Virus record (IMG/VR): IMGVR_UViG_3300005973_000002
Source: a virus
Lineage: Duplodnaviria > Caudoviricetes
Length of the DNA stretch: 64,000 bases
Strand: one strand, 5' to 3'
Shown: piece after piece, positions 4,985 through 17,871 of the stretch
How positions within the stretch are numbered: position 1 is the first letter of the stretch
How the letters are laid out: each line of letters opens with the position of its first letter
Translations under genes and position numbers: made by a program
The notes under the pieces: model-generated
Seen by the model: the letters and a program-made list of their open reading frames with translations, nothing else
Told to the model about the DNA's origin: nothing
Databases searched by the model: none

Positions 4985-5060
4985 TGGTGCCCAGGAAGGG
5001 ATTCGAACCCTCACTGTGCCGGTTCTGAGCCGACTGCCTCTGCCATTGGGCTACCTGGGC
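4985..5060 (-). tRNA. trnL: tRNA-Leu(CAG), 76 nt, short variable loop, encoded CCA
   Basis: Acceptor GCCCAGG/CCTGGGC; anticodon stem GTCGG/CCGGC with loop CTCAGAA; 5-nt variable loop; T-loop TTCGAAT; A73; CCA. Confidence 0.9.
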
Positions 5061-6117: not shown

Positions 6118-6423
6118 TCACTTAGACTGAAGTACCAATCCTCGGTCGAAACCGCCTCGAAGTTGTAATTTTTTAATTCTAGTTTGCTCTATTTCAACAG
6201 AATTGTGTCCAAGAGCCTTAGCCAAGGAGTAAACGACTTCTATCACATCAGCCATTTCTTCTAAACTCGGTTCAGCAACAAGTTCAGAAGCTTCCTCAAT
6301 TACCTTGTCAAGTAAGAGAGGGATTTTTTCATTGTCATGACACGAGATAATTTCAAGGTTATCAGAGAGACCGCCATTATCATCAATAATTTTAGGTATC
6401 TTATCTCGTATTAACTTTCTCAT
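6118..6423 (-). CDS. MazG-like / PRA-PH nucleoside triphosphate pyrophosphohydrolase
   Basis: MRKLIRDKIP start; EEASEL...EEMADVIEV...RGGF. True start is ATG 6423; the longer ORF call reads through the tRNA. Confidence 0.85.
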   Translation of the reverse strand: MRKLIRDKIPKIIDDNGGLSDNLEIISCHDNEKIPLLLDKVIEEASELVAEPSLEEMADVIEVVYSLAKALGHNSVEIEQTRIKKLQLRGGFDRGLVLQSK

Positions 6424-6432
6424 GTTATGAGT

Positions 6433-6523
6433 TGGCGGAAGGCAGAGGACTTGAACCCCAACGGTTGTTGACCGTCCATCCGCTTTCGAGACGGCGGCGA
6501 TCACCCGGATCGCTTTACCTTCC
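6433..6523 (-). tRNA. trnS: tRNA-Ser(CGA), long variable arm, encoded CCA
   Basis: Acceptor GGAAGGT/GCCTTCC; loop CTCGAAA; long variable arm; T-loop TTCAAGT; G73; CCA. Confidence 0.9.
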
Positions 6524-6540
6524 AAAGGTTTGTGTAATTA

Positions 6541-6816
6541 TTATTTGTCTTCCAATTCGCCAAGGATTTCTCCAGTGCTTATGCTATATTCATAGCGTGA
6601 TGGAGGTAATGTAAAAGTTGCCACAAATTGATCATAACAATCTTCACAAATGTCCCAAGCATGCTTTTGCATGTCTTTGCGAGACCAAAATCCCCAATGA
6701 ACCTCTAAGGAGGCGTAATCTTTCTCAGTTTCATGGTCACACTGACTCCCACACTTGTTGCAGTAAACTGCATCAGTCTCTTGAACTTGGATAGTTTTTA
6801 TCGTAAATGTTTTCAT
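6541..6816 (-). CDS. Hypothetical protein with two CxxC motifs
   Basis: CNKC and CEDC; 91 aa. Confidence 0.7.
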   Translation of the reverse strand: MKTFTIKTIQVQETDAVYCNKCGSQCDHETEKDYASLEVHWGFWSRKDMQKHAWDICEDCYDQFVATFTLPPSRYEYSISTGEILGELEDK

Positions 6817-7016
6817 TATTTTCGCCTAAAGGTCCAAACCCAGGCAGCAATATGCTCAACGATATCGTTGTGCAGGGCTGATTTTGTAGCGAATTCTCGT
6901 ATCACCTGTGCGTTTTCCCACGCATCTCTGGAGATGCCCTGCATCTTCGCTGATTTAGCTGATAGCATCAACCTTTTTCTAGCTTCAATTTTGGACTGAA
7001 CATCTATTTCAGACAT
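6816..7016 (-). CDS. Hypothetical protein
   Basis: 66 aa; stop and start overlap with the neighbour. Confidence 0.6.
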   Translation of the reverse strand: MSEIDVQSKIEARKRLMLSAKSAKMQGISRDAWENAQVIREFATKSALHNDIVEHIAAWVWTFRRK

Positions 7017-7029
7017 AATGGAGATTAGA

Positions 7030-8205
7030 TCACTTTACAAGTTTTGTAAACAGCTCAGTCTCACGTCGTTCAATTTCTTGTCCGATTTCTCGTCCCTTTA
7101 AACCCTGAGCCATCAACTCTTGTCCACTCACGGATGGTTCGTATTTAATAAATGCATCTACCAAATTCATGTCCGGCTCACCACTAAGTTGAGCAAATTC
7201 CTTCAAGTCCTCAGGAGAAAGTCGTGTCGGCTTCCACAATTTTTTCAAATGATAAGCATTCTCGGGAGAAAGGTTTTGAAAAAGATTAAGAAAAGCAATT
7301 TGCCTAGTTTCAACTACACTGTATTTTAAGTTGTTTAACTTTTGAGACAAAACTTTAGGATTGTTATCTCGTGTAAGAAGAGCAAGTTGCACTGGGATGT
7401 TCTTTGTTTCTTCATACCACGTGTTTAGCTTTAACCCAGGTAAAATCTTTTCCCATAAATTGAAAGAGTCATAAAGACGATGTAAGGCCCTGACGGATTG
7501 GGCACTCTTAATGCTTTTCAAGAATTCATCTCTGATTCTTTCAGGCGACACACCCTCTAAGGAATTATTTGCCCTAATGGCGTCTTCGGTCGGTTTATCA
7601 AGCCCAGCACCCATACGAGCTGCAAATCTAATAGCTCGCAAAATTCTCAGTCTGTCCTCATCAAATCTTTCTGAGGGATCTCCAACAGCTCTAACCACAC
7701 CTTTTTCTAGATCTTCAAGACCGCCTACCAAGTCCACAACTTCTTGACTGTCGATGTCATAAAAAAGTGCGTTAATTGTAAGATCACGACGTTTCACATC
7801 ATTTTCAATAGTAGTAAACTCAACTGCATCGGGTCGTCGACCCACCAAAGACTTAAATTCTCGATATTCTTCTGGAAAAAGTTGTGCGGCTTTATTTTTC
7901 CAATTAGCCGACTCTGTCAACTTGTTTGTGGTTGTTGGGGTAAATGTGATAAAGATACCATCTGTAGGATCACCCTCCACGACACTGATACTATCAGTGC
8001 TGTACTCATCGAAAATTTTATAGTGTTCATCCCACCAATCTTCTTCGGGTGTACCTGCTTCATATCGACATCCGAGTGTATGAGTTTCAATGAACCAGCC
8101 ATTTACAATAACAGTATCACCACAAGTTCTTGCAGTCTTCAATTTAGCCAGAAGGTCATTTCCAGCCTTTTGAACGGTTGCAGGTAAATCTTCATACTTG
8201 GTCAT
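7030..8205 (-). CDS. cca: CCA-adding enzyme (class II tRNA nucleotidyltransferase), C-terminal piece with a 121-aa foreign leader
   Basis: GRRPDAVEF, DVKRRDLTINA (motif B), DLVGG, RAVGDPSERFDEDRLRILRAIRF (motif D), SPERIRDE. SD GGAG 8 nt before ATG 8205. Confidence 0.9.
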   Translation of the reverse strand: MTKYEDLPATVQKAGNDLLAKLKTARTCGDTVIVNGWFIETHTLGCRYEAGTPEEDWWDEHYKIFDEYSTDSISVVEGDPTDGIFITFTPTTTNKLTESANWKNKAAQLFPEEYREFKSLVGRRPDAVEFTTIENDVKRRDLTINALFYDIDSQEVVDLVGGLEDLEKGVVRAVGDPSERFDEDRLRILRAIRFAARMGAGLDKPTEDAIRANNSLEGVSPERIRDEFLKSIKSAQSVRALHRLYDSFNLWEKILPGLKLNTWYEETKNIPVQLALLTRDNNPKVLSQKLNNLKYSVVETRQIAFLNLFQNLSPENAYHLKKLWKPTRLSPEDLKEFAQLSGEPDMNLVDAFIKYEPSVSGQELMAQGLKGREIGQEIERRETELFTKLVK

Positions 8206-8926
8206 CAACATATCTCCACATAAAACCACCAGCTTGTTTCCTGTACTTTTTGTTTCTGGCAGCACAGCTAATGTTTCTAATTCCCAAGTCTTTTTGAGCT
8301 TTATCAACACTTTCCCAAATTTGGATCATTTCACCGTCTAAAGTCATTTGCATTACTTTTTTCTTGTTCCAAGCTGATTTTCCTCTACGAGCTTTAGAAA
8401 TCTTCTGCTTTTGTGCTTCTGTACAAGGTTTTCCAAGTCTTCTGGTGTTACCTATAAGTGACTTGGAAATATTTTTCTTGTGTACAGAAGTTAATTTTCG
8501 ACCCTTATGCTGTCTAGCAACTTGTGCTATTTTTTGCTTCGCCTTCTCACTGTGCTTATAACCGTGAGATCCAACCTCTCCTCCAGAAGTGACATTTGTT
8601 AAATCACAACCTTTGTCTTTGAAATATTGAATCCAATACCGCTCTCGTTCTGTCAACAAACTTTCTTCACATTTTTCAATGGCAATTATCCTCAGTTTGG
8701 AGAGCAATCCTTTTCTCTCCAATAATCGCAACCAATTATTCTTATGCGAGTTATTCTTGTTCCTTCGATGCTTATGCTTAGAGAGTCTAACGTTTAGCTT
8801 TGATACAGTTTTACCAACATATCTGACCTCATTAGTCATTGGGCATACGAGCGAGTAGACGCAGCCTTTTCTTCCAGTTTTCTGGCTGTTTTTCTTGGAT
8901 GAATTTAACGAAACTTTCATAATCAT
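8192..8926 (-). mobile_element. GIY-YIG homing endonuclease with NUMOD3/NUMOD1-type DNA-binding modules
   Basis: GCVYSLVCP...YVGKT, RLSKH, ERERYWI, CDLTN, GGE; HSEKAKQKI repeats; C-terminal KKVMQMTLDGE...AGGFMWRY. Confidence 0.9.
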
Positions 8927-9779
8927 CTTTTAAATATGAATCTTCACGGAAAGTTGCTATTTCATATTCATTGCCCTCAGGGGTTATAACATTGATAACA
9001 CCAAATGCCTTCCCAACTTCCATTGTTTTGTACTCTGGGAATTTCCTGATTATTTCAAGAATGCGATTAGGATTAGCATCTGTGGCCACATCATAATCCT
9101 TAGGTTCTTTACCCAGCAATGCATCCCGTACTGCTCCACCTACAACGTAAAGTTGATGTCCAGCTTTTGAAAAGATTTGTGATAATCTTTGAATGTCAGC
9201 AGGTATTTTCATATTAAAGGGCTTTCGCACTGATTCAACTAAGAAATTGAAATTTTCATTTAAAATTTCATCAATAAGCCATTTAACGCTTTCGTTTTTA
9301 GCCTCAGTTTCTTGGTTGTCTTTTTTTGGCACCTGATCCAGTGGCGAAGGTTGCTTTTTCTGCAAATATTTTTTAAACTTGCGCTCCCGTTTTTTGCGAG
9401 GTACAGTGTAATGTTTTTTTAACAACTGATCAATGGTAGATTGGTACCAGCGCTTTGCCTGTCCAGCAAGTTTGTTGTCATCTACAAAATGATCAATATA
9501 AAGACGCACTCCGTGCGTATCACCGGATTGACGTGGGTCCATATCTGGATCCATTTTAAGCAAGCCTGACAACTGGTCGAGTTTCTTGGTTGGAGAGTAT
9601 CCTCCCCTGACTGATGACACGGAAAACTTAGCAAGTTTAGTCAAATCATCATGAATTTCGGGAAAATTTTTCTTCATGTGATTAACGTAATCTTGCGATA
9701 GCTCCTCACGGTGTTCGAGCATGACTTCATCAAGCACTTCCTCAATCAAATATACAAGGTCTTTCTTTTTCATGGACAT
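8832..9779 (-). CDS. cca: CCA-adding enzyme, N-terminal piece with a roughly 180-aa N-terminal extension
   Basis: LYVVGGAVRDALLG..PKDYDVAT (motif A), VGKAFGV, EIATFREDSYLKD, then a 30-aa unrelated tail and stop. Confidence 0.9.
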   Translation of the reverse strand: MSMKKKDLVYLIEEVLDEVMLEHREELSQDYVNHMKKNFPEIHDDLTKLAKFSVSSVRGGYSPTKKLDQLSGLLKMDPDMDPRQSGDTHGVRLYIDHFVDDNKLAGQAKRWYQSTIDQLLKKHYTVPRKKRERKFKKYLQKKQPSPLDQVPKKDNQETEAKNESVKWLIDEILNENFNFLVESVRKPFNMKIPADIQRLSQIFSKAGHQLYVVGGAVRDALLGKEPKDYDVATDANPNRILEIIRKFPEYKTMEVGKAFGVINVITPEGNEYEIATFREDSYLKDDYESFVKFIQEKQPENWKKRLRLLARMPND

Positions 9780-9808
9780 AACTAAATATTATTTCTAAAA
9801 CTAACAAC

Positions 9809-10120
9809 ATGAATGATTGGATTAAAACTGAAGACGGCAAAAAAATTAAAACATTATATAATGGAAAAATTGCCGTTGTTGGACCAGAAGATACATCTAG
9901 TATTGTTCCTTTGTTTTGTTCTTGTTGTAATTTTCCAATGAGAACTACTGATGATAGTGTCAGTTATCGTAAATATGGCGTTTGTAGCAAATGCGATAAT
10001 CGTTGGACTTCAAAACCTGGGGTGACGTGGCCTGAAGGACCTGATAAATCATCTGTGGACTGGCGAGAATATCTTGAACACAGACTGATACTTGAAAAAC
10101 CTGTAATAAACTTCAAATAA
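9809..10120 (+). CDS. Hypothetical protein with CxxC pairs
   Basis: CSCC and CSKC; 103 aa. Confidence 0.7.
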   Translation: MNDWIKTEDGKKIKTLYNGKIAVVGPEDTSSIVPLFCSCCNFPMRTTDDSVSYRKYGVCSKCDNRWTSKPGVTWPEGPDKSSVDWREYLEHRLILEKPVINFK

Positions 10121-10171
10121 TAAAACTACTTGTATGTCACGCTCTAATTATCTTGAGCCAAGGATATAAAG

Positions 10172-10570
10172 ATGGAAACCGATTACAAGAAACTTCTTAG
10201 AATCTCACAAGTTCTCAATAACACATTTGGTACTGATGGACCTGGATACCAACATATAAGCGGAATGAATGTCAGGCTTGATCCAATCGACAGCGGGCTA
10301 CTGAAAGCACGTTGTATTATGACCGTTACTTTTCGTTCCGATCAAATGATGAGAGAAAGACTTCGCAAACACAGAGATGAAGCTGTTGCTATGATCAAAG
10401 GAGCACTTGATCGCTTCAAAGACGATTATCAAGCTCGATTTGACGAGGAAATAAGTTACGAAATGGATGATAAAGCTCTTGAAGAGAGCACAGAGTTTAT
10501 TCATGTTTCCCAATACACAGCTTTGAGTCGGGCTTTTTATAGAGTTAATACTCTAGTACGAATAAAATAA
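10172..10570 (+). CDS. Hypothetical protein
   Basis: 132 aa; SD AAGGA. Confidence 0.75.
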   Translation: METDYKKLLRISQVLNNTFGTDGPGYQHISGMNVRLDPIDSGLLKARCIMTVTFRSDQMMRERLRKHRDEAVAMIKGALDRFKDDYQARFDEEISYEMDDKALEESTEFIHVSQYTALSRAFYRVNTLVRIK

Positions 10571-11389: not shown

Positions 11390-13081
11390 ATGCCAAGGAG
11401 AAAAAATCACAAAGGAAAGAGCAAGGCTCCTTCCAAAAAGATACAAATGCAAGAAATTGTGAAGTGTGGCTCAGATGCTGCTTACTTCATCAATAATTAT
11501 GTAAAAATCCCACATCCAATTAAGGGAATGATTCCCTTTAAGACATACCCATTCCAGGATGACTGTTTAAAAGCATTTCAACAAAATAAAAACGTAATTG
11601 TAAACAAAAGTCGTCAGTTAGGATTATCAACAATTGTAGCTGCTTATTCTCTTTGGATGGCTCTTTTCCAAAAGGAAAAGAGCATTCTTGTTATTGCTAT
11701 TAAACTTGAGACGGCAAAACTTTTCATCAAAAAGGTTGAGGCTATGCTTGCCGGTTTGCCGGATTGGCTTGTTATGCCACAAATCCGAGCACAATCCGTT
11801 AGATATATCATCTTCTCTAACGGTAGTAAAATTCAAGCAATTCCAACATCTCCTGGAGCTGGTCGTGGTGAAGCCCTTTCTTTACTCATTGTCGATGAAG
11901 CTGCGCACGTTGAAGGAATTGATGATATTTGGCTTGGTCTACAACCAACGCTTTCTACTGGTGGTTCATCTATCTTGATTTCAACACCTTCTGGTGTTGG
12001 TACTCTGTTCCACAAAATTTGGACAGCCTCTAAAGAGGAGAGAAATGATTTCCACGCTATCGAACTTCCTTGGACTGTTCACCCTGAACGAGATCAAGAA
12101 TGGTTCGAAGAGCAAAGAAGAGGCATTATTGAAGCACACGGAGAGCGTGGCGTAGCTCAAGAACTTCTATGTTCCTTTGCAGCATCAGGTGACACGTTTC
12201 TTAGAAGCGATGTCATGGAAAAAATATATGTTGACATCAAAGACCCAATTTCTTATTGGGGGCCAGAAGGTGTTGCCAAAAAAGATACGTGGATTTGGAA
12301 GCATCCAGTAACAAATCACAAATATGTAATTGCTGCTGACGTAGCAAGGGGCGATGGCGAAGATTTTTCAGCGTTTCATGTCATTGATATAGATGCGGAT
12401 GAGGTTGTAGCTGAATTCAAAGGTAAAGTTGCACCGGATAAATTAGCAGAAATGCTTGTACAAGTTGGCATGAGATATAACATGGCAATGATCTGTCCTG
12501 AGAAGAACTCTATTGGCATCGGTTGCGTTCTTAAATTAAAAGAACTCAACTATCCGAATCTTTATTATGACAAATTACACAAGAATATTTACATGGTTTA
12601 TTCGACTATGGACACTGAAAACGAAATACCAGGCTTTGATACAAACCCTAAAACTCGTATAGAAGCACTTGTAAAACTTGAAGATGTACTAAGAAACAGA
12701 AGACTTAAAACATATTCTAAACGTCTCTATGAGGAACTCCAAACCTTCATCTGGAAAGGTAATAAGCCAATGGCGCAAAAGGGCTATCATGACGACCTTG
12801 TTATGGCTCTTGCTATTGGTAATTCTTTATATGAAGCTAGTGGTACAAACACTTATAGTAACGACGATTTAGCCAAAGCCATGATCGCAGGTATGTCTGT
12901 AGCACACAACTCTATGGATTCAAACCCAACTCCAAATTCAACTCCGATGCCACCAGTTATGACCGACGGTTCTCTTTCCAGTTTTCTCGATCAAGCGAGA
13001 GCAAAATCTATGCGAAACTCCAAAATTCAAAATTATAACGATCCGTACTGGCAGCAATTTAATTGGCTTTGGAAAGATTGA
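11390..13081 (+). CDS. terL: Terminase large subunit (T4 gp17-like)
   Basis: YPFQ, KSRQLGLST, LLIVDEAAH, ISTP; nuclease motifs IAADVARG and YHDDLVMALA. Confidence 0.95.
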   Translation: MPRRKNHKGKSKAPSKKIQMQEIVKCGSDAAYFINNYVKIPHPIKGMIPFKTYPFQDDCLKAFQQNKNVIVNKSRQLGLSTIVAAYSLWMALFQKEKSILVIAIKLETAKLFIKKVEAMLAGLPDWLVMPQIRAQSVRYIIFSNGSKIQAIPTSPGAGRGEALSLLIVDEAAHVEGIDDIWLGLQPTLSTGGSSILISTPSGVGTLFHKIWTASKEERNDFHAIELPWTVHPERDQEWFEEQRRGIIEAHGERGVAQELLCSFAASGDTFLRSDVMEKIYVDIKDPISYWGPEGVAKKDTWIWKHPVTNHKYVIAADVARGDGEDFSAFHVIDIDADEVVAEFKGKVAPDKLAEMLVQVGMRYNMAMICPEKNSIGIGCVLKLKELNYPNLYYDKLHKNIYMVYSTMDTENEIPGFDTNPKTRIEALVKLEDVLRNRRLKTYSKRLYEELQTFIWKGNKPMAQKGYHDDLVMALAIGNSLYEASGTNTYSNDDLAKAMIAGMSVAHNSMDSNPTPNSTPMPPVMTDGSLSSFLDQARAKSMRNSKIQNYNDPYWQQFNWLWKD

Positions 13082-17795: not shown

Positions 17796-17867
17796 GGGCG
17801 ATTAACTCAGTGGAAGAGTGGCTGCTTTACACGCAGTAGGTCGGCGGTTCGAATCCGTCATCGCCCA
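17796..17867 (+). tRNA. trnV: tRNA-Val(TAC), no encoded CCA
   Basis: Acceptor GGGCGAT/ATCGCCC; loop TTTACAC; T-loop TTCGAAT; A73 followed by CAA. Confidence 0.95.
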
Positions 17868-17871
17868 CAAA

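Follow-up and report, generated by a model that had tools for sequence, protein, structure and literature searches.

The gene for a class II CCA-adding enzyme on the minus strand of the window (the whole stretch of 64,000 nucleotides of phage DNA analysed here) is split within its flexible loop, and the locus consists of three overlapping ORFs. We consider it probable that the gene was split by a homing-endonuclease cassette and that the two resulting chains reassemble non-covalently into a working nucleotidyltransferase. This reading builds on the observed anatomy of the locus, the recurrence of the split at one site, presence/absence polymorphism, purifying selection, and the lack of intron and intein signatures.

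According to this explanation, a free-standing GIY-YIG cassette would have inserted into the flexible loop of a phage CCA gene, between the sequences encoding TFRED and GRRPD. The cassette would be inherited as one unit, composed of a helical tail of ~35 aa, the endonuclease gene, a variable cargo (here an orphan 95-aa domain fused in frame) and a leader of ~25 aa. It may spread between phage CCA genes via homing or recombination, with the endonuclease decaying later. Overlapping and probably translationally coupled ORFs would yield the enzyme as two polypeptides, whose non-covalent reassembly would give a working nucleotidyltransferase with the cassette-encoded tail and leader in the interface.

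Structure of the split locus

The three minus-strand ORFs encode the N-half (9779-8832, 315 aa), the endonuclease (8926-8192, 244 aa) and the C-half (8205-7030, 391 aa) and comprise the following features:

9225-9779, minus strand: N-half residues 1-185, lineage-specific N-terminal extension outside the cassette
8940-9224, minus strand: N-half residues 186-280, part of the head with motif A, C-terminal end TFRED (PolyA_pol profile, alignment)
7843-8939, minus strand: mobile cassette, 1097 nt, replacing 9 nt coding for IGK (compared with unsplit P0003/L009)
8835-8939, minus strand: cassette-encoded C-terminal tail of the N-half, 35 aa, stop codon at 8834-8832 (aligned to 51 other tails)
8192-8926, minus strand: complete gene (244 aa) for a GIY-YIG/NUMOD3 homing endonuclease, starting at the junction (Pfam, PHROG)
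8214-8217, minus strand: GGAG Shine-Dalgarno of the C-half, within the 3' end of the endonuclease ORF (read from the sequence)
7921-8205, minus strand: C-half residues 1-95, "ETHTLGC" cargo domain, fused in frame (74 representative homologues)
7843-7920, minus strand: C-half residues 96-121, leader (W-helix) directly 5' of GRRPD (kept in 16 split C-halves)
7030-7842, minus strand: C-half residues 122-391, remaining head region with motifs B-E, neck, body, tail and stop codon (Pfam)

The N-half matches positions 1-77 of the 126 in the Pfam profile PolyA_pol (E 1e-17) and carries GGAVRD and DYD of motif A, while the C-half matches positions 74-126 of the same profile followed by PolyA_pol_RNAbd and carries RRD and EDRLRILR of motifs B-E; the break therefore falls at about profile position 75. 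The features that define the family (PF01743 and PF12627) are thus divided, with motif A in the N-half and motifs B-E and the RNA-binding body in the C-half. Instead of an unbroken reading frame there are two ORFs, with a 1097-nt insert separating TFRED from GRRPD. The catalytic motifs are all intact in the two halves according to Pfam and the alignments, and the C-half keeps every column that is invariant among 15 relatives. A reading of the sequence alone, made before this analysis, had recognised a CCA-adding enzyme in two pieces with catalytic halves that looked intact, and both points were borne out. Downstream of the cassette, the C-half is 85% identical to the unsplit relative P0003. 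The N-terminal extension, for which a Pfam search gave no match, is also found in the unsplit relatives P0003-P0005 (549 aa).

The endonuclease ORF has its own ATG and the C-half its own Shine-Dalgarno, located 8 nt 5' of the ATG at 8205; an alternative in-frame ATG at 8211 is the start in the database copy P0001 (393 aa). An open frame of >150 codons 5' of GRRPD is not expected by chance in DNA of 39% GC. The stretch 6500-10300 showed no differences across contigs of four independent hypersaline-lake runs, so the locus is not an assembly artefact, and the DNA contigs of these four runs contained the split form only; the stretch was found in no RNA run. The carrier is a large phage of a hypersaline lake.

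The cassette and its components

At the insertion site, unsplit relatives (P0003) read TFRED-IGK-GRRPD. Comparison with P0003 places the start of the insert 15 nt earlier than the sequence-only reading had done (8939-7843, 1097 nt, rather than 8924-7843, 1082 nt), and the tail added to the N-half, comparison with unsplit relatives shows, amounts to 35 aa rather than 30. The GIY-YIG gene that had been proposed to start at the junction was confirmed: its ATG (8926-8924) lies 13 nt inside the insert, and its product matches GIY-YIG (PF01541, E 3e-8), NUMOD3 (E 1e-6) and PHROG 314, homing endonuclease (E 6e-17), so that both the catalytic domain and the DNA-binding module are present.

Of the 121 codons described earlier as fused to the C-half, the in-frame fusion and the own Shine-Dalgarno hold, but the first 95 codons encode an unrelated cargo domain which elsewhere occurs as free-standing proteins of ~100 aa. 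Many of the homologues of this "ETHTLGC" domain (n=74 representatives) are free-standing proteins of 75-135 aa, and the same fusion occurs in P0002/L001/L010. The domain was modelled by AF2 with a pLDDT of 92. No match was obtained in Pfam, PHROGs, the PDB (Foldseek) or AFDB clusters, nor by features in the ESM Atlas, where the best match by shape reached a TM of only 0.42; VIA-align wide likewise gave no fold match (best Z 4.9).

The two "docking helices" postulated at the break correspond to real conserved elements. The tail shows the pattern Y..D(L/Y)E.F..(Y/F)(L/I)......(Y/W)(E/K) in 51 N-halves, with conserved length and hydrophobic pattern, and the leader the pattern W..(I/A)A...(F/L)P.E(F/Y)..(F/Y) in 16 C-halves. 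The conservation of the tail is partly confounded, as its distal part overlaps the GIY motif of the endonuclease in another frame. Both the 35-aa tail and the 121-aa segment preceding GRRPD are absent from P0003 and 104 other unsplit relatives (loops of 5-9 residues), and among 122 proteins with both motifs no unsplit enzyme with a contiguous loop insertion of ~60 aa was found (loops of 5, 7 or 9 residues). The supposed quasi-symmetry of the added helices and the trimming of the C-half leader at an LTE/S site found no support. MAFFT alignments had also raised the idea that tail and leader derive from duplication and decay of the native sequence on the opposite side of the break. This idea was rejected, since hhalign comparisons of the 51 tails with the native post-break segment, and of the 16 leaders with the native pre-break segment, gave probabilities of ≤0.4%, no better than crossed controls.

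Recurrence, mobility and endonuclease decay

The breakpoint proved to be shared, as the sequence-only reading had suggested checking: a cassette at the same site, with N-tail, endonuclease, optional cargo and C-leader, was found in 12 of 80 related IMG/VR loci, and also on the metagenomic contigs L001-L006. The loci with a homologous cassette at the same site are:

L001, L002, L003, L005, L006, L010, L015, L032, L036, L039-41, L045, L050, L054, L057, L067

Homologous endonucleases lie between the halves in other split loci, and about 50 protein clusters (lengths 125-150 aa) represent tail-bearing N-halves. In the C-core tree the split enzymes are scattered among unsplit ones: nine split rows need eight split/unsplit changes, at least four of which are forced by well-supported branches. 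One allele pair consists of L005 (split) and L008 (unsplit), whose flanks are 99.1-99.5% identical on both sides; L005 contains a 1333-nt insert in place of about 30 nt, with an exact right border and nine mostly synonymous changes within a recoded stretch of 25 nt to the left of the insert. This presence/absence with a recoded flank at a fixed site is an observation on the cassette family (L005/L008) rather than on the population of the window itself. As to direction, such allele pairs may reflect either gain by homing or precise loss.

The endonuclease is intact in the window and in L001, L002, L006, L032, L039, L045, L050, L054 and L057. L005 has a frameshifted copy, in L003 a remnant of 67 aa is left, and L067 lacks the gene. 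In all loci scored for endonuclease state, including those in which it is decayed or absent, the halves are intact. No tail-bearing N-half was found in GenBank phage records, which, except for one 192-nt match, contained no DNA similar to the locus either, and the literature yielded no description of a phage CCA-adding enzyme in two pieces. Judged by the sequence comparisons, the insert in its entirety is a mobile cassette that recurs, not an accident confined to this locus.

Selection and assembly of the two chains

In the comparison of L032 with L054, dN/dS was 0.12 for the N-core, 0.19 for the tail, 0.16 for the leader and 0.15 for the C-core, and between L045 and the endonuclease-free L067 it was 0.10 for the N-core and 0.17 for the C-core. 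The earlier proposal to look for selection on both halves is thereby answered by values of 0.10-0.17 in split lineages. The less saturated pairs gave 0.18-0.19 for the tail and 0.12-0.16 for the leader, while in distant pairs several leader and tail values were ≥0.6, each from 23-35 codons. With a dN/dS of 0.1-0.2 in the less saturated pairs, tail and leader as well as the two halves are under purifying selection. In the lineage of the window itself the endonuclease ORF overlaps the entire tail in another frame; window and L001 are 65% identical in the tail frame and also 65% in the overlapping endonuclease frame, so this pair is uninformative on tail selection.

Complex prediction for the N-half and C-half gave an ipSAE of 0.79, compared with 0.00 for the best control; scores this high were obtained for 51 of 78 solved complexes and for two of 108 mismatched pairs. 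Residues 287-309 of the tail and 102-121 of the leader belong to the predicted interface, which was given as a list of residues rather than pairwise contacts. The prediction, which the sequence-only reading had put forward as a check, supports binding of the two halves, although the score may simply reflect two pieces of one known fold. The model in which two chains are held together by the newly acquired segments, favoured from the start, is thus also favoured by the comparative data and the complex prediction, and the cassette's own short peptide tails probably hold the halves together. We infer that the chains associate, that this association requires tail and leader, and that the enzyme retains full CCA addition.

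The last of these points is where the strongest competing explanation departs. The chains may assemble, but the broken and enlarged loop could alter specificity, such that the enzyme adds CC only, or the terminal A poorly, and a host enzyme cooperates. The insert sits in the flexible loop that links motif A to motif B and on which the change from C to A addition depends; exchanging this loop between enzyme families eliminates A addition but not C addition, and the loop is missing from natural CC-adding enzymes (PMC2910056). A break in this loop could therefore alter activity. Against this, the cassette has been maintained in many lineages whose two halves are under strong purifying selection, GRRPD and the remaining loop region are unchanged, and split alleles alternate with unsplit ones in near-identical genomes, which suggests that the insert has little effect on function. 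We regard altered specificity as unlikely.

A potential substrate is present in the window:

17796-17868, plus strand: phage tRNA-Val(UAC), 3' flank without encoded CCA (ARAGORN)

The tRNA-Leu and tRNA-Ser of the window end in an encoded CCA, and tRNA-Val(UAC) is likely to be a substrate of the split CCA-adding enzyme.

That only one of the three window tRNAs lacks an encoded CCA would also suit a gene killed by the endonuclease insertion, the halves being decaying remnants in a phage that relies on the CCA-adding enzyme of its host. Such a host enzyme is normally available, and one unsplit relative (L090) itself has an in-frame stop. We nevertheless consider a dead gene improbable, given that the catalytic motifs are intact in both halves, that dN/dS is 0.10-0.17 for both halves of split lineages, endonuclease-free ones included, that 51 N-halves have preserved their frames, the position of the stop codon and the length of the tail, and that the Shine-Dalgarno and the overlapping ORFs are retained.

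Absence of intron and intein signatures

Phage GIY-YIG endonucleases often reside in group I introns, and the junction bases are compatible with U/...G/. Removal of the insert from the RNA by a group I/II intron or other splicing, which the sequence-only reading had kept as its second model, gained no support and appears very improbable. An Rfam scan of positions 6800-10000 gave no intron family at E<10, and a scan of L001-L004, including a 376-nt endonuclease-free insert, gave no intron at E<1. With the endonuclease ATG only 13 nt inside the insert, there is no room for intron P1-P2. Moreover, the 3' part of the insert belongs to an open frame of >150 codons which codes for a domain with 74 protein homologues, and tail and leader evolve as proteins.

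Equally hard to credit is a split intein, made up of tail and leader, that ligates the halves: the order N-part, endonuclease gene, C-part does match that of fractured genes (Dassa et al. 2009, PMC2677866), but tail and leader total only ~60 aa, below the size of a HINT fold, the first C-extein position is the G or K of (G/K)RRPD without a conserved Cys/Ser/Thr, there is no terminal His-Asn, and no conserved nucleophile opens the tail across families. Searches of the window ORFs against Pfam intein/Hint gave no match at E<0.1, and the earlier statement that there is no intein thus stands, the defining features being absent by motif comparison and Pfam.

Comparison with known split genes

The closest parallel to the proposed non-covalent two-chain enzyme is the nrdA gene of phage Aeh1, whose splitting by mobE Friedrich et al. 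reportedly described in 2007. As at the CCA locus, a free-standing endonuclease gene inside the catalytic region turns one enzyme gene into two ORFs, and each half has a new tail that is missing from unsplit homologues. Function of Aeh1 NrdA is restored without RNA or protein splicing, and the CCA enzyme would regain its function in the same way. NrdA-a and NrdA-b owe their tails to the mobE insertion, and the enzyme needs these tails to be active (Crona et al. 2011, PMC3045599). The two systems also differ: the CCA-adding enzyme is a monomeric class II enzyme and the Aeh1 enzyme an RNR; the endonuclease is GIY-YIG/NUMOD3 here, whereas mobE is HNH; and the Aeh1 tails are oppositely charged, whereas the CCA tail and leader are amphipathic with little net charge. 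In contrast to the one transposition-like event reported for Aeh1 (PMC3045599), the CCA cassette is conserved at the same site in dozens of lineages, shows presence/absence alleles and all stages of endonuclease decay, and additionally carries variable cargo domains. What sets the CCA locus apart from the Aeh1 precedent, as far as the sequence comparisons indicate, is that the tails are a conserved part of a horizontally spreading cassette.

The T4 topoisomerase genes 39 and 60, split by mobA, provide another endonuclease-associated split into two chains with tail-like extensions, as at the CCA locus (PMC3045599), but T4 gene 60 needs translational bypassing, whereas the CCA locus has no evident bypass element and needs none. 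Fractured genes (PMC2677866) share with the CCA locus the order of parts, the origin from environmental phage-like DNA and, as proposed for the CCA cassette, a mobile element that neutralises its own insertion; since nucleophiles, His-Asn and a HINT-size domain are absent from the CCA cassette, any joining of the halves must be non-covalent. Separate CC-adding and A-adding enzymes, as in Aquifex and S. pombe (PMC7014341), likewise make CCA synthesis dependent on two polypeptides, but these are two complete paralogues with partial activities, whereas here one enzyme is cut between motifs A and B.

I-TevI, encoded in the td group I intron of T4, belongs to the same endonuclease family, and there too the insertion lies in highly conserved catalytic-site codons; at the CCA locus, by contrast, no intron RNA is detectable and the flanks of the endonuclease gene are translated. 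The recoded tract of ~25 nt on one side of the insert would be comparable to the distance between the cleavage and insertion sites of I-TevI.

Wider significance

Beside self-splicing introns and inteins, the cassette family might represent a third route by which a mobile element neutralises its own insertion, through matched docking-peptide ends (a "non-covalent intein") combined with a slot between endonuclease and leader that serves as a landing pad for cargo; we see the chances of this wider reading as evenly balanced. If it is true, the docking peptides would move together with the endonuclease gene and restore the severed enzyme non-covalently, and cargo domains landing between endonuclease and leader would become fused to the host enzyme.

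From one phage, Crona et al. (PMC3045599) proposed that tails supplied by mobile elements may be a general neutraliser of gene fragmentation. The CCA cassette family would be a natural test set for this idea, with dozens of independent lineages, matched split/unsplit alleles, endonuclease-free survivors and several tail variants, which opens it to direct testing through sequence comparison and simple co-expression. For the tRNA nucleotidyltransferase field, the locus offers a natural chain break and an addition of ~60 aa in the loop that governs the C-to-A switch. For protein engineering, the tail/leader pairs are candidate small heterodimerising tags, tuned by evolution for fragment complementation. 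Annotation pipelines list the split halves as two truncated "tRNA nucleotidyltransferase" genes.

Organization of the split gene

The CCA-adding enzyme gene of the window was confirmed to lie in two pieces, as the sequence-only reading had claimed, with a homing endonuclease ORF between them:

9779-8832, minus strand: N-half ORF, 315 aa; Pfam PolyA_pol profile positions 1-77 of 126, with GGAVRD and DYD
8926-8192, minus strand: GIY-YIG + NUMOD3 homing endonuclease ORF, 244 aa (Pfam; PHROG 314)
8205-7030, minus strand: C-half ORF, 391 aa; PolyA_pol positions 74-126 and the RNA-binding domain
7921-8205, minus strand: 'ETHTLGC' domain, residues 1-95 of the C-half; 74 representative homologues

The N-half consists of a 185-aa extension followed by the first part of the class II nucleotidyltransferase head and, as the two portions of the PolyA_pol profile fall in separate ORFs, the break is exact in profile terms. 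Both catalytic halves are intact, as had been proposed, every family-invariant residue being kept in the alignment with relatives, and the C-half has its own SD (GGAG, 8 nt ahead of the ATG at 8205). The endonuclease ORF runs over the last part of the N-half at one end and the first part of the C-half at the other, so all three ORFs make up a tight, probably translationally coupled unit. The window DNA is present in five hypersaline-lake metagenome runs, and the stretch 6500-10300 shows 0 differences among contigs of four runs; the split arrangement is thus not an assembly artefact.

The surrounding genes are those of a phage, with a T4-type large terminase at 11390-13081 on the strand opposite to the split gene and three tRNA genes, and the C-half protein was found on contigs of up to 438 kb.

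17796-17868, plus strand: tRNA-Val(UAC), no encoded CCA end
4985-5060, minus strand: tRNA-Leu(CAG), ends in CCA
6433-6523, minus strand: tRNA-Ser(CGA), ends in CCA

A 135-aa ORF (6118-6525, minus strand) overlaps tRNA-Ser on the same strand, and coding is improbable at least for its TTG start and initial ~30 codons.

Insert boundaries, leader and cargo

The closest relatives are the unsplit 549-aa proteins P0003-P0005, which are 83-85% identical in the C part and read TFRED-IGK-GRRPD at the break site, so that the foreign segment of the window spans 8939-7843 (1097 nt). Of the limits first proposed (8924-7843), the 7843 end stands, while the insert is 15 nt longer at its 5' end, and the insert-encoded tail of the N-half measures 35 aa instead of 30. 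The 185-aa extension (9225-9779, minus strand), which has no Pfam match, is common to P0003-P0005 and is therefore a lineage-specific addition to the enzyme, not part of the inserted cassette (tail, endonuclease, optional cargo and leader).

The 121 codons ahead of GRRPD are fused in frame to the C-half, as had been noticed, but they are composite rather than a single added segment. Residues 96-121 are a leader conserved in all split C-halves, and in most loci the C-half Met lies right there. Residues 1-95 form the separate 'ETHTLGC' domain, which is found elsewhere as a protein on its own (75-135 aa) and as part of giant proteins, its homologues ranging from 51 aa to 1683-3198 aa. Its near-invariant residues are G29, E40, H42, T43, G45, C46, H61, Y68, D71, G78, G83 and F85, and its AF2 model is confident (pLDDT 92); no known family or fold was matched in Pfam, PHROGs, PDB Foldseek, AFDB clusters, ESM Atlas or VIA-align. 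The leader has lost its own Met in the window and the related loci L001/L010, where the C-half must therefore be produced as a fusion with this domain. The same slot in other cassettes holds other cargo, some as separate ORFs of 67-130 aa; in L005 (4001-4570) a ~190-aa domain with weak ADP-ribosyltransferase-like matches (ART-PolyVal E 0.02, PARP E 0.08) precedes the conserved leader and is fused in frame to the C-half.

Recurrence and mobility of the cassette

The arrangement of N-half with tail, homologous endonuclease and C-half with leader was found at this site on other contigs too, in unchanged order, the first examples being L001 (69% identical, same 121-aa leader), L002, L003, L005 and L006. 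The breakpoint is common to homologs: among 80 related IMG/VR loci, 12 were split at this site, 67 were unsplit and one was cut by a contig end. Searching proteins with a single 150-aa N-half as query gave ~50 further N-half clusters (125-150 aa, ending 33-40 residues past TFR). In a maximum-likelihood phylogeny built from the C-core of the 114 top-scoring hits (quick search, midpoint-rooted), eight state changes were needed to account for the nine split rows, and well-supported branches forced at least four of them.

State of the endonuclease between the halves
Full-length: window, L001/L010, L002/L015, L006, L032/L036, L039-41, L045, L050, L054, L057
Frameshifted: L005
Remnant, 67 aa: L003/L004 (376-nt insert)
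Absent: L067 (325-nt insert)

These endonucleases are homologous to one another and, whatever their state, the CCA halves, tail and leader are intact in every listed locus. In the window and L001 the endonuclease lacks the customary M-K/R-K-G start ahead of the GIY strand and begins instead at the junction ATG, which adds 17-19 residues.

The clearest example is the pair of split L005 and unsplit L008, whose DNA flanks are both 99.1-99.5% identical; L005 carries a 1333-nt insert in place of ~30 nt, its right border coinciding exactly with the K-GRRPD codons. In the 25 nt left of the insert there are nine substitutions relative to L008 (seven synonymous), against ~0.1 expected. Judged from the sequences, this recoded flank is the pattern produced by co-conversion during homing, and it would also shield the cassette-bearing allele from cutting; its distance resembles the cleavage-to-insertion-site spacing of I-TevI. 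The same picture was seen at lower identity in another tail family (P0251/L090 against P0230+P0104/L006). The insert is almost certainly a mobile cassette.

Further features were observed around these genes. The unsplit allele L090 (321-1110), near the L006 lineage, has an in-frame stop in the body domain (GVSP*RIRDEF), which reflects a sequencing error or else the decay of this unsplit copy. A second GIY-YIG/NUMOD3 gene, only distantly related to the inserted endonuclease, lies immediately 5' of the CCA gene, in L005 (1594-2493) as well as in L008 (139-1137), and the locus looks like an endonuclease-gene hot spot. In L006 a 94-aa cREC_REC (PF20274) ORF (2255-2539) directly precedes the N-half; the same domain is fused to the enzyme N-terminus in the unsplit relative P0109 (504 aa). 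In Brevundimonas jumbo phages (GenBank ON529853, ON529851 and related ones), a single N-head match covers two annotated features ('tRNA nucleotidyltransferase' and 'hypothetical protein'), which may represent another kind of CCA gene interruption.

Predicted complex and alternative explanations

The complex prediction for N-half residues 186-315 with the whole C-half gave an ipSAE of 0.79 (three runs), compared with 0.00 for the best of three controls; the 0.79 mark was attained by 51 of 78 solved complexes and by 2 of 108 mismatched pairs. The prediction supports binding of the halves, with the caveat that fragments of a single known fold may score well because the predictor has already learned that fold. 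Among the confidently predicted interface residues are 287, 289-290, 293-294, 297, 299, 305 and 308-309 of the tail and 102, 105-106, 109-110, 112-114, 117-118 and 120-121 of the leader, with helical periodicity in both; tail and leader may touch each other, the prediction giving interface residues rather than residue pairs. Together with the sequence comparison, this supports the model favoured initially, a non-covalent two-chain enzyme held by the new segments. Such an enzyme is likely functional, and it is plausible, with somewhat better than even chances, that docking needs the tail and leader.

The split enzyme may have an altered specificity: its chain is interrupted between motifs A and B, inside the flexible-loop element that is needed to change from C to A addition, and A addition is lost when a foreign loop is put in (PMC2910056).

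Removal of the insert by RNA splicing, the other model initially considered, found no support: Rfam models matched no intron family in the window at E<10, nor at E<1 in four related loci, a 5' intron core has no room ahead of the endonuclease ATG, and the 3' part of the insert is a long open frame encoding a domain with 74 protein homologues. Joining of the halves by a split intein, already discounted in the sequence-only reading, is contradicted by a +1 residue of G or K, the absence of a terminal His-Asn, a first nucleophile that is not conserved across tail families, and a tail and leader of only ~60 aa together.

Selection on the halves, tail and leader

Nei-Gojobori dN/dS between split loci was below 1 in both halves (0.10-0.17), which contradicts a gene that died after insertion. 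For L032 and L054 (dS ~0.8-1.2) the values were 0.12 (N-core), 0.19 (tail), 0.16 (leader) and 0.15 (C-core); for L045 and the endonuclease-free L067, 0.10 (N-core) and 0.17 (C-core); and for L003 and L002, 0.18 (tail) and 0.12 (leader). Between the window and L001 synonymous sites are saturated (pN/pS 0.23-0.41). The short leader reached at least 0.6 in some distant pairs, so tail and leader estimates are noisy.

When aligned, the 51 tails prove conserved in length and show a recurring hydrophobic pattern, and they evolve faster than the core (tail identity 0.61 at core identity 0.8-0.9); W..IA...FP.EF..F just before GRRPD is common to 16 leaders. In the window's tail family the final ~15 tail codons share their DNA with the endonuclease GIY motif, read in another frame, and for the window the overlap with the endonuclease ORF extends over the whole tail, so part of the tail conservation is not its own; the most abundant tail family (L006) has no overlap of this kind. 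The idea that tail and leader arose by duplication of the native segments on the opposite side of the break, followed by decay, was rejected, the profile comparison being no better than controls.

Comparison with known systems

No publication describing a split phage CCA-adding enzyme turned up in the literature search, and the GenBank phage records showed no cultured-phage case. The closest known case is Aeromonas phage Aeh1, in which nrdA is split by mobE and insertion-born tails are essential for activity, and whose authors suggested that such tails may be a general mechanism (PMC3045599). The two-chain enzyme of the window appears to resemble it in its working and agrees with it in the sequence-level criteria, although the enzyme and the endonuclease family differ. 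The Aeh1 tails carry opposite charges, whereas window-type tails are amphipathic with little net charge. Unlike in Aeh1, tails, endonuclease and leader here form one conserved cassette, which recurs at one site in many lineages and also carries cargo.
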